Positions 3,001 through 6,000 of a stretch of 64,000 nucleotides of DNA are shown piece after piece (position 1 is the stretch's first letter; every line of letters starts with the position of its first letter). The stretch lies in NCBI RefSeq assembly GCF_001677475.2, contig NZ_CP015229.1, one strand, 5' to 3'. The position numbers are program-made. Origin of the DNA: Escherichia coli (lineage in GTDB: Bacteria > Pseudomonadota > Gammaproteobacteria > Enterobacterales > Enterobacteriaceae).

Positions 3001-6000
3001 GTTGTTAGCTCAGTCGGACAGAGCAATTGCCTTCTAAGCAATCGGTCACTGGTTCGAATCCAGTACAACGCGCCATACTTATTTTCCTGGCTCGCTTTTG
3101 CGGGCCTTTTTTGTATCCGCGCCACGCCCGGCGCATATCAAAAACCACAGAGCCTTTCAGGGGTGAGCTTACGGGATGGTCAGTGTGACTTTCTCTGTGG
3201 GCTGGTCACCCCCGGGCGCAGGCTCACCCACTAAAAGGAAAAGTCACGATGTTTGGTATTTTCAAAAAGAAAACACGCAAGGCCATTACCGAAGTGAAGA
3301 AGATGGAGAACCGCGACGCAGTGGAGGCGACCGTCTGGGGCGCGTATTCCATTGCATTTGCCGACGGCACCTGTGACGCGAAAGAAATCGCGGTACTGGA
3401 GAAAACCATTGCAGCACTTCCTGCCTTTGCTCCGTTCTCGGGTGAGATTGCACAAATGAGTGCAAATATCCGCGCCCGTTATGAAGCATCGCCGCGTTCT
3501 GCCAATGCCGAAGCCCTCCGCCAGCTGGCTGATATTGCAGGTACTGATGACGCAGTTAATGTGCTGTGCCTGTGTCTGGATATCGCTGACCAGGACGGCA
3601 TTGGCCCGGATGAAGAAGCGCAACTGAAGAAAATTGCTCAGGCGCTGCAGCTACCACTGGAGCAGTACCTGTGAAAAGTGCGCGCCTTGTGCTGGCTGCC
3701 ATCCTGCTGTTTCTGGTAGTGGCAGTGGATTTCACCGGACGGCTGATGTCGGTACTGGCAGATGGTGTGCTGGTGGCGGGGATGGTGATAATGGTGTTGC
3801 CTTTGCTGAAGAGTGTAAAAAATACACAGACGTGAAATGTTAAATCCATCACAATTAAGTTGATTGGGTATTGCTGGTTGACGGAGCTTTTGTTAGAAAA
3901 AATTTGCATGGTGGATCCCCCCGGGTGGTGGGCATATGAGTGATGTATGTTTCTGTTCTGCTCCTTTATTATGCTGATTCGGGTACTGATACTGAATTCA
4001 TCGGGAGGCACCCGGCACCATGCAAGCATGCCCCTCTCCTGAGGGGCTTTTTATATAAACAGGTTCTACAGATTCTATCAGACATGCGTAAACTTATTAT
4101 GGCCTGTGTCGTTTTAGCCCGTAGGGGCATATTTGCAGAATGCAACGGTTATTAAAGCATTCATTAAATACGTTATCTGAATTTGCAGGGCATTCTTGGC
4201 TGTTTTTGATTAAATCCCAGAATCTTTTATTGAATGGTACAACGTTGTAAATGGTTACAGGTAGCACTTTGTTATTGAGTACGATACCTGTGTGAGTCAG
4301 CGTAAATATACTTTCAGGAGGTAAGAAAACATCCGATTGATACCAGATTATTAATTTTATTTTACTCCATATGGCTGAAAAAGATATTCCACATGATGGC
4401 TGGATAACTGTATCAATCACAATCCACTTCATTTAGTTTCCTTATTTATGCCTTGCTGGTGATGTTCTGAAAAGTATAAATGATAATTTTGAATGTAAAC
4501 CATAGAGCAGAACTGTTTTTCTGATTTTGTTTATTGTTTATTTAAAATGCAGGGTGGTTTATATCTCGTCTTGTAGTTTATCCATGCATATCTGCTTTAT
4601 GATGAGGTTTTATTTAAAGTATGGTTTTGTGTTTTTTTCTGTATTGCATGTCAGGTATTTTAAAGAATTATTTTTTAGATGGTGGAAAGAACCATGGCAT
4701 TTAAACACTATGATGTTGTCAGGGCGGCGTCGCCGTCAGATCTTGCGGAAAAGCTGACACACAAACTGAAAGAGGGCTGGCAGCCATACGGCGGACCGGT
4801 TGCCATTACGCCGTACACACTGATGCGGGCGGTGGCTATTGAAGGAGAGCCACAGGTCGGCCCTTCATCTGAGCCGGACTGGTTCTACGTGGTTGTGCTT
4901 ACCGGACAGTCCAACAGCATGGCCTACGGTGAAGGGCTTCCGTTACCGGATTCTTACGATGCTCCGGATCCGCGCATTAAACAGCTGGCGCGCCGCAGCA
5001 CGGTAACTGGCATTTTTAGCAGAGCCTGAATGCCATAATCACGGCTCCCGGAGTTGGCCGTCAGTGGGTGACACGGGCGGCTTTTTGTTTTTCTTTACTT
5101 TCATTTTCTGTCGGCGGGGACGGAGACATACATCATATGGAAAAAATTACAACAGGTGTGTCATACACCACGTCAGCGGTGGGGACGGGATACTGGTTAC
5201 TGCAGCTGCTGGACAGGGTTTCCCCGTCTCAGTGGGCGGCAATAGGCGTGCTGGGGAGTCTGCTGTTTGGTCTGCTGACGTACCTGACGAACCTGTATTT
5301 CAAAATTAAAGAAGACCGGCGTAAGGCGGCGCGGGGAGAGTAGACGATGAACCATGAAGAAATGAATCAGCGCATAAGTTGCCTGGAAAATGAAATCACT
5401 GAACTGAATAAAAAACTGTCGGTGCTGATGGTTTCTGAAGATGAAAAAAAACGCCGCGATGAGCAGGAAGCAGCGTTTTACGATGATTGCATCAAAATTG
5501 CTCGCAGGACCTTTGCGAAGATTTTGCAGGAAAAGTTTTTACCGACCGCATTGTCAGAAAAGCACTCCATTACAGTTAAAAGTGCCGGAGAGGAAGGCAA
5601 TAAACGTTATTTTATTGCGTCTGCACCGGATAAAGACCAGGAATGGGGGGGGGAATCGGCCATCTTTTATTGTGACAAGCGATGACTGGAATATCACGAT
5701 CCGTGAAGATGGAAAAGTAACACCAGCATCGCACCAGCACAGTGAGGCGCTCATTGAATTTGCCATTGATTACCTGAAGAACAATAAAAAGCAGGGACTA
5801 ATGAAGCGCATTGGTCGTTGCATGGGATATCTGCAGGTAGCTGCTGAGATTGAAGCGCTGGCCAGTGGTGCGGACAAGGATGCTGTTGTGCGGGAGGCTC
5901 TTCTTCGTGATTTTGATAATCCACCCTTTAAAAAAGTGCCGGCTTACTGGTTTCATCCAGGACTGACTTATCTTAAAGGACGTATATAAGCTGGCTCGTT

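Follow-up and report, generated by a model that had tools for sequence, protein, structure and literature searches.

NanS-p is a prophage-borne 9-O-acetyl-N-acetylneuraminate esterase, represented by L0105/z1466 in phage 933W and by vb_24B_21/gp84 in phage phi24B. Intact nanS-p enables growth of lysogens on Neu5,9Ac2 from mucin, and z1466 is strongly induced in EDL933 (reviewed in PMC8065619). In NanS, catalysis involves Ser19 and His301, and Gln18 is located in the oxyanion hole (PMC9063846). The NanS-p homologue of phi24B, gp84, has been described as a virion protein in a cryo-EM preprint (bioRxiv 10.64898/2026.04.10.717836). The DUF1737 domain of gp84 (Ala2-Ser57) assembles into hexamers that sit on the central hexons of the T=9 capsid, and the remainder of gp84 is apparently cleaved off after about residue 57 (bioRxiv 10.64898/2026.04.10.717836). 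Single-domain proteins account for 2,528 of the approximately 3,000 DUF1737 proteins in InterPro (bioRxiv 10.64898/2026.04.10.717836).

We analysed a 64,000-nucleotide stretch of the Escherichia coli contig NZ_CP015229.1 (RefSeq assembly GCF_001677475.2), referred to here as the window. A preliminary description of the window, made from the sequence alone, had proposed that a nanS-p-like esterase gene is reduced to a stub of 111 amino acids and that this marks a deletion scar next to an IraM-like island, with a holin gene within about 100 bp. The analysis bears out each of these points. We are highly confident that the ORF at 4694-5029 represents the 5' end left of a prophage nanS-p gene after deletion of its esterase body. 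The features of the locus are listed below.

4097..4432, minus strand: IraM anti-adapter gene, the upstream neighbour, which the deletion leaves untouched (NCBIfam NF007393, 163.9 bits against a cutoff of 121)
4694..5029, plus strand: truncated nanS-p ORF, 111 amino acids plus stop (ATG at 4694, TGA at 5027-5029)
4700..4831, plus strand: DUF1737 domain, residues 3-46 (Pfam PF08410, E 2.5e-15, 56.5 bits against a cutoff of 24)
4871..5008, plus strand: residues 60-105, the orphaned beginning of the SASA/SGNH esterase domain (match to NanS 3pt5)
5007..5008, plus strand: deletion junction with a 2-bp exact microhomology, CT, inside an imperfect 7-mer (GGTAACT versus GTTATCT)
5009..5029, plus strand: six read-through codons (GIFSRA) plus stop, from former intergenic spacer (junction alignment)
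5009..5136, plus strand: retained distal nanS-p-to-holin spacer (92-95% identity to the pre-holin spacer of intact relatives)
5137..5343, plus strand: class II (phage 21-type) holin S, the downstream neighbour, intact after the deletion (PF04971, E 3.5e-33; PGAP)

The ORF has a second in-frame ATG at 4679, and a start there would add five residues to give a protein of 116 amino acids. The DUF1737-like N-terminus noted earlier is substantiated by the PF08410 match. An AF2 model built on a 60-sequence alignment predicts residues 1-55 to be a folded unit (pLDDT 79-87) with a strand-helix-strand-strand topology (E4-11, H14-26, E30-39, E42-50), and predicts residues 56-111 to be disordered (pLDDT <50). 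When this model was compared to the PDB with Foldseek in search of a structural analogue of DUF1737, the best match had an E-value of 0.29 and was uninformative. Past the DUF1737 domain, residues 58-105 comprise the linker and the first strand of the SASA domain. In a PDB sequence search, residues 60-101 aligned with residues 17-58 of NanS/YjhS (PDB 3pt5, 337 aa) with an E-value of 1.3e-14; the phi24B virion model was not among the matches. The GQSN motif is formed by residues 71-74 (nt 4904-4915). It had been claimed that the ORF stops soon after this motif, and the native sequence indeed ends 31 residues beyond it, at T105 (nt 5008), followed by GIFSRA.

The missing esterase body was also confirmed. 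Residues 106-616 of the intact 616-aa relatives are absent, and a tblastn search of the window with the full-length protein recovered residues 1-105 alone, with no esterase body in frame elsewhere. Three domains define NanS-p, namely DUF1737, a full SASA/SGNH domain and a lectin-like C-terminal domain, and the stub has only the first. It has no Pfam SASA match, and the lectin-like domain (DUF6645; PDB 6yp6) is absent by tblastn from both the stub and the entire window. No NCBIfam model matches either the stub or the intact esterase.

The intact relatives show what has been lost. Among complete E. coli genomes searched by megablast, window positions 4693-5008 (316 nt) match nt 1-315 of the intact nanS-p genes of E2865 and UTAK-6 with 98.4-98.7% DNA identity, a similarity much too high to be accidental. 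These intact genes are 1,851 bp long and are annotated 'SASA family carbohydrate esterase'. Their 616-aa products contain DUF1737 (3-49), SASA (66-262) and DUF6645 (467-577); residues 60-379 match NanS 3pt5 (E 1.7e-119) and residues 421-613 match the NanS-p C-terminal domain 6yp6 (E 7e-30). They are placed between the Q/tRNA/cargo region and holin S, which is the position of nanS-p in Stx phages such as Stx1_14040 and phi24B. Further downstream, window positions 5004-5351 are 93.4% identical to the spacer and holin of E2865 and UTAK-6. FDAARGOS_1059 is collinear with the window and carries DUF3927, IraM on the minus strand, a full-length esterase and the holin, which is the arrangement expected before the deletion.

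Alignment with full-length nanS-p maps a clean junction at 5008/5009. The window was compared base by base to five references (E2865, UTAK-6, the Stx1a phage, O157:H7 F8492 and FDAARGOS_1059). In all five, left homology extends to 5008 and right homology runs from 5004 through the holin gene. Across the junction the stub reads ...GCACGGTAACT on the left and GGCATTTTTAGC... on the right; past the left break the intact genes read ...GGTAACTCCGGGTGG..., and the donor on the right has the sequence ...AATGTTATCTGGCATTTT.... In the E2865 locus (L005), nt 5317-7170 have no counterpart in the window. These 1,854 bp consist of 1,536 bp of coding sequence (codons 106-616 and the stop) and 318 bp of spacer. 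The loss is about 1,700 bp relative to FDAARGOS_1059, which has a shorter spacer, and the spacer loss is thus reference-dependent (164-318 bp). The holin gene begins at 5137, 107 bp beyond the stop of the stub. The retained spacer holds a hairpin (5057-5081) followed by a U-run (5082-5092), with an unremarkable fold z-score of -1.38. A consensus scan found no terminator between stub and holin; the hairpin loop there exceeds the limit of the scan.

The proposed origin of the stub can be described as a short series of steps. The parent would have been a nanS-p gene for a 9-O-acetyl-sialate esterase with DUF1737, SASA/SGNH and lectin-like C-terminal domains. One illegitimate-recombination or slippage event at the 2-bp microhomology would have fused codon 105 to spacer sequence lying about 128 bp before the holin gene. 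Approximately 1.7-1.85 kb would have been removed, comprising residues 106-616 and 164-318 bp of spacer. Translation would then run six codons into the former spacer and stop. The predicted product is a foldable DUF1737 domain with a disordered tail bearing the orphan GQSN block. Without the catalytic His and about 87% of the esterase fold, the product should be incapable of sialic-acid deacetylation, and we infer from the missing residues that esterase activity is lost. Judged by its position, its identity to intact genes and its mapped breakpoint, the ORF is a member of the nanS-p lineage by descent, in the form of a pseudogene.

The same junction is found elsewhere. It is present, with 99.9-100% identity, in six of 5,426 complete E. 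coli genomes, and in these six the stub is the sole place matched by a 5' nanS-p probe. PGAP treats the ORF as an incomplete pseudogene in these genomes; in E. coli 08-00022 its label is 'DUF1737 domain-containing protein; incomplete; missing C-terminus'. The exact 111-aa protein occurs on about 395 contigs and is named 'DUF1737 domain-containing protein' by NCBI. Eight additional loci, taken from separate assemblies, carry stub DNA that is 100% identical. The stub is part of a module of about 3.9 kb (window 3089-6980) that contains TerB, DUF3927, IraM, the stub, the holin, a 213-aa ORF and lysozyme. Module identity to the window is 97.4-98.3% in seven of the eight loci, and the remaining one, L014, shares 11 kb of collinear sequence with the window at 99.7% identity. 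The module is joined to at least three packaging/head modules (DUF1441 with GpA; HNH with Terminase_4 and TerL; Nu1 with GpA) and to two Q types. As the same junction recurs across genomes with differing head modules and Q types, the deletion is real, is not private to one strain and is shuffled among lambdoid backbones.

The late half of a lambda-like siphovirus prophage lies in the window itself. Gene order in its first part is RusA, Q (PF06323), an AraC-family gene, tRNA-Met, tRNA-Arg, TerB, DUF3927, IraM and the stub. Past the stub, it continues with the S, R and Rz lysis genes, GpA terminase, a lambda-family portal, a ClpP-capsid fusion, tail genes and gpJ. The right end of the prophage adjoins potB, which is followed by potA, phoQ, phoP and icd. 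An IS21-family element (20704-22955) splits the tape-measure gene, and a 1-bp insertion at 5645 shifts the frame of the ORF that follows the holin. Because of these two lesions the prophage looks defective, and tail assembly by it is probably not to be expected. Given its position between Q and the S-R-Rz lysis genes, on the strand of the late operon, the stub is probably transcribed as a passenger and on induction only. Its expression may occur via Q-dependent read-through from pR', as suggested by lambdoid biology and by the induction of z1466.

The nanS-p gene is often found in a decayed state. Its first 315 nt match 7,166 places in 2,130 complete E. coli genomes, and the next 315 nt match 4,677 places in 1,390 complete genomes. 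About one third of the places that match the 5' end are without adjacent esterase sequence. Other prophages carry independent internal deletions. In O157:H7 F8492, CDS nt 321-1140 of the reference are deleted, with a left break 6 bp from that of the stub. In the vB_EcoS-640R1 type, nt 221-1711 are deleted, whereas the stub lacks nt 316 through the stop codon and on into the spacer. The 67-aa 'DUF1737 protein' and adjacent 53-aa ORF of 640R1 are the two ends of nanS-p with 1,491 bp removed, and among the matching hits the same arrangement is also found in prophages of many human E. coli isolates. Like the stub, the F8492 and 640R1-type remnants are deletion derivatives of the same locus that keep the DUF1737 end, and PGAP labels them as incomplete or as small DUF1737 ORFs. 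There are thus at least three independent nanS-p deletions that keep this end, a count that partly reflects ascertainment because the search used the 5' end. The stub differs from the nearest intact allele by 4 nt, one synonymous and three nonsynonymous (Q45R, A70T and G75S). R45 and T70 are unique to the stub; Q is found in 126 of 133 homologues and A in 105 of 109. This pattern fits relaxed constraint on both halves of the stub, with counts too small for statistics.

Other explanations of the locus can be set against this evidence. That the truncation is an assembly or sequencing artefact has a practically negligible chance: nothing specific supports it, and it was rejected since an identical junction recurs in six independently finished genomes and in eight loci from separate assemblies with identical stub DNA. 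It is highly improbable that the ORF is native to a short DUF1737-only family and never had an esterase body. DUF1737-only proteins are numerous and the NCBI name would suit one, but residues 58-105 hold linker and SASA strand and match intact genes at 98% DNA identity, the tail originates in the spacer, PGAP flags a missing C-terminus, and even the 67-aa protein of the 640R1 type maps as a nanS-p deletion remnant. The preliminary description had itself named a match to a naturally short standalone family as what would refute it. By descent the ORF belongs to no such family, as it reaches 48 residues into the esterase domain and its GIFSRA tail is unique among 134 homologues, where the others go on as PGG[A/E]...; this set, which also served for the residue tallies, consists almost only of contig-end 'partial' fragments shorter than 200 aa and gives no family length distribution. 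Contradicted by the junction mapping, the native short family was rejected. A further proposal is that the junction formed between two resident prophages, with the 5' part of nanS-p from one and the spacer and holin from the other. None of the 5,426 complete genomes contains an intact parent in which both flanks reach 98% identity, which leaves room for two parents. The flanks differ in nearest relative and in divergence (at best 98.7% for the 5' part versus 94.9% for spacer and holin), E. coli genomes contain up to 13 copies of the nanS-p region, and the surrounding module is highly mosaic. However, an unsampled parent would explain the unequal divergence equally well, and the genes follow the same order as in intact loci such as FDAARGOS_1059. 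We consider two parents unlikely on balance, and the outcome would be unchanged either way, a truncated gene that is esterase-dead.

A different question is whether a stub that arose by deletion still works, either as a stand-alone DUF1737 capsid decoration or in another DUF1737 role. In phi24B, residues 2-57 of gp84 decorate the capsid once the rest is cleaved, and most DUF1737 proteins are single-domain (bioRxiv 10.64898/2026.04.10.717836). The entire DUF1737 domain is kept in the stub and is predicted to fold, the ORF is open on approximately 395 contigs, and the independent nanS-p deletions described above retain the same end. Against this, the head genes of the window are of lambda type and not of the phi24B T=9 podovirus type, the anchor loop differs from that of phi24B and is three residues shorter, and an identical copy accompanies three unrelated packaging/head modules, making a specific capsid partner less likely. 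Q45R changes a residue that about 95% of homologues have as Q, the IS21 element in the tape-measure gene makes virions unlikely, and retention of the 5' end is partly a product of a search made with that end. A working stub is therefore a distinctly doubtful proposition. Slightly more speculative still is the broader suggestion that 5'-retaining nanS-p remnants are kept open as a DUF1737 decoration or assembly module that tolerates several lambdoid head types. If this were true, such deletions would turn a bifunctional decoration-plus-esterase protein into a minimal decoration protein and not into junk.

We thus return to a deletion remnant of nanS-p. It is a routine deletion pseudogene of a known gene, already flagged as incomplete by RefSeq. 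Its N-terminal half need not be a dead passenger, as DUF1737 by itself has a demonstrated function in phi24B; the ORF is also still open, with DNA that is 100% identical across prophages with three head modules. The prophage module is left without the sialate-esterase function that intact nanS-p provides. As one case of a common decay pattern, the stub has little significance alone. Given the 2026 finding that DUF1737 binds the capsid, such stubs are natural test cases for the domain working alone.

In comparison to known proteins, the stub is most like NanS-p. Both occupy the position between the Q/cargo region and holin S on the late strand, and both have the DUF1737 N-terminus, the linker and the GQSN block. 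The stub differs from NanS-p by the loss of residues 106-616, which include most of the SASA/SGNH domain with the catalytic His and all of the lectin-like domain, and by its foreign 6-residue tail. The equivalents of Gln18-Ser19 of NanS are kept, while the His301 region falls in the deleted 1,536 bp. Chromosomal NanS (YjhS) is a complete 337-aa enzyme without DUF1737, and the stub amounts to about 13% of the NanS fold. The stub and phi24B gp84 share 65% protein identity over their common N-terminal stretch, in which gp84 has an extra 3-residue stretch in the DUF1737 anchor loop and an extra 11-residue stretch in the linker. In phi24B the anchor loop bears Tyr42, the 'tooth'. The stub has a Tyr (Y41), but in a loop that is three residues shorter and differs in sequence, PVAITPYTLM versus ALISTAGYGAEF. 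The head module in the window (GpA terminase, lambda-family portal and ClpP-capsid fusion) is unlike that of the phi24B T=9 podovirus. The product of the deletion resembles the large natural family of single-domain DUF1737 proteins. Unlike these stand-alone proteins, the stub has about 56 further residues, a tail predicted to be disordered, and the stub itself derives from a deletion. The only domain left intact is DUF1737, predicted to fold over about 55 residues, and in this it can be compared with the Ala2-Ser57 fragment of gp84 on the capsid.

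A module of about 3.9 kb (window 3089-6980), comprised of TerB, DUF3927, IraM, the truncated nanS-p stub, the holin, a 213-aa ORF and the lysozyme, is common to several prophages (loci L008-L015) at 97.4-98.3% identity. Three distinct packaging/head modules and two types of Q antiterminator occur among the prophages that carry it, so that lambdoid mosaicism around the cargo is plainly seen here.

The lysis region shows a second instance of decay: compared with E. coli 08-00022, a 1-bp insertion (G) at 5645 splits the 213-aa ORF (5347-5989) that follows the holin. The two resulting ORFs, 5347-5685 and 5441-5989, overlap. 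The 213-aa ORF has no match in Pfam or NCBIfam. The spacer between the stub and the holin contains a hairpin (5057-5081) followed by a U-run (to 5092), located 28 nt past the stub stop and 45 nt ahead of the holin start. Both elements are kept in the spacer of intact relatives and may form a read-through terminator within the late operon; the predicted RNA fold of 5040-5100 (-19.8 kcal/mol, z -1.38) is not distinctive.

Deletions in nanS-p are also found elsewhere. The nanS-p gene of E. coli O157:H7 F8492 (L004 2994-4018) is missing nt 321-1140 of the reference CDS, and the left break of this deletion is only 6 bp from that of the window's stub. In phage vB_EcoS-640R1 (L001 4279-4640) and prophages of this type, nanS-p has lost 1,491 bp, and its two ends persist as the 67-aa "DUF1737 protein" and an ORF of 53 aa. 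The F8492 and 640R1 deletions are independent events. The near-coincidence of left breakpoints in F8492 and the window could reflect either chance or a hotspot.

The lambda-type tape-measure gene (18507-23475) is interrupted by an IS21-family element that encodes two proteins:

20704-22203, IstA (NCBIfam NF033546)
22200-22955, IstB (PF01695)

The N-terminal ORF of the tape-measure gene stops at 20615 and its Tape_meas_lam_C domain is cut short at 55 of 76 positions. Tails are probably not made by this prophage.

Within 33457-46454, the right end of the prophage adjoins potB (33691-34554, minus strand), beyond which potA, phoQ, phoP and icd follow in that order. The insertion thus falls at the place that the E. 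coli K-12 gene order would assign to potC.

The cargo between Q and IraM (1625-3835) is made up of an ORF of 106 aa that matches no family and of the following genes:

2082-2795, AraC-family regulator
2822-2897, tRNA-Met(CAT)
2999-3075, tRNA-Arg(TCT)
3249-3674, TerB-family protein
3671-3835, DUF3927 ORF

No stx genes are present in this interval, whereas in Stx phages they occupy the corresponding position. Additional DNA, missing in E. coli 08-00022, lies between lysozyme R and Rz (6981-8036). Short ORFs of this interval in L014, a collinear prophage locus, match P22_AR_N and ORF11CD3. They look like remnants of antirepressor genes, comparable to "d_ant" of phi24B.
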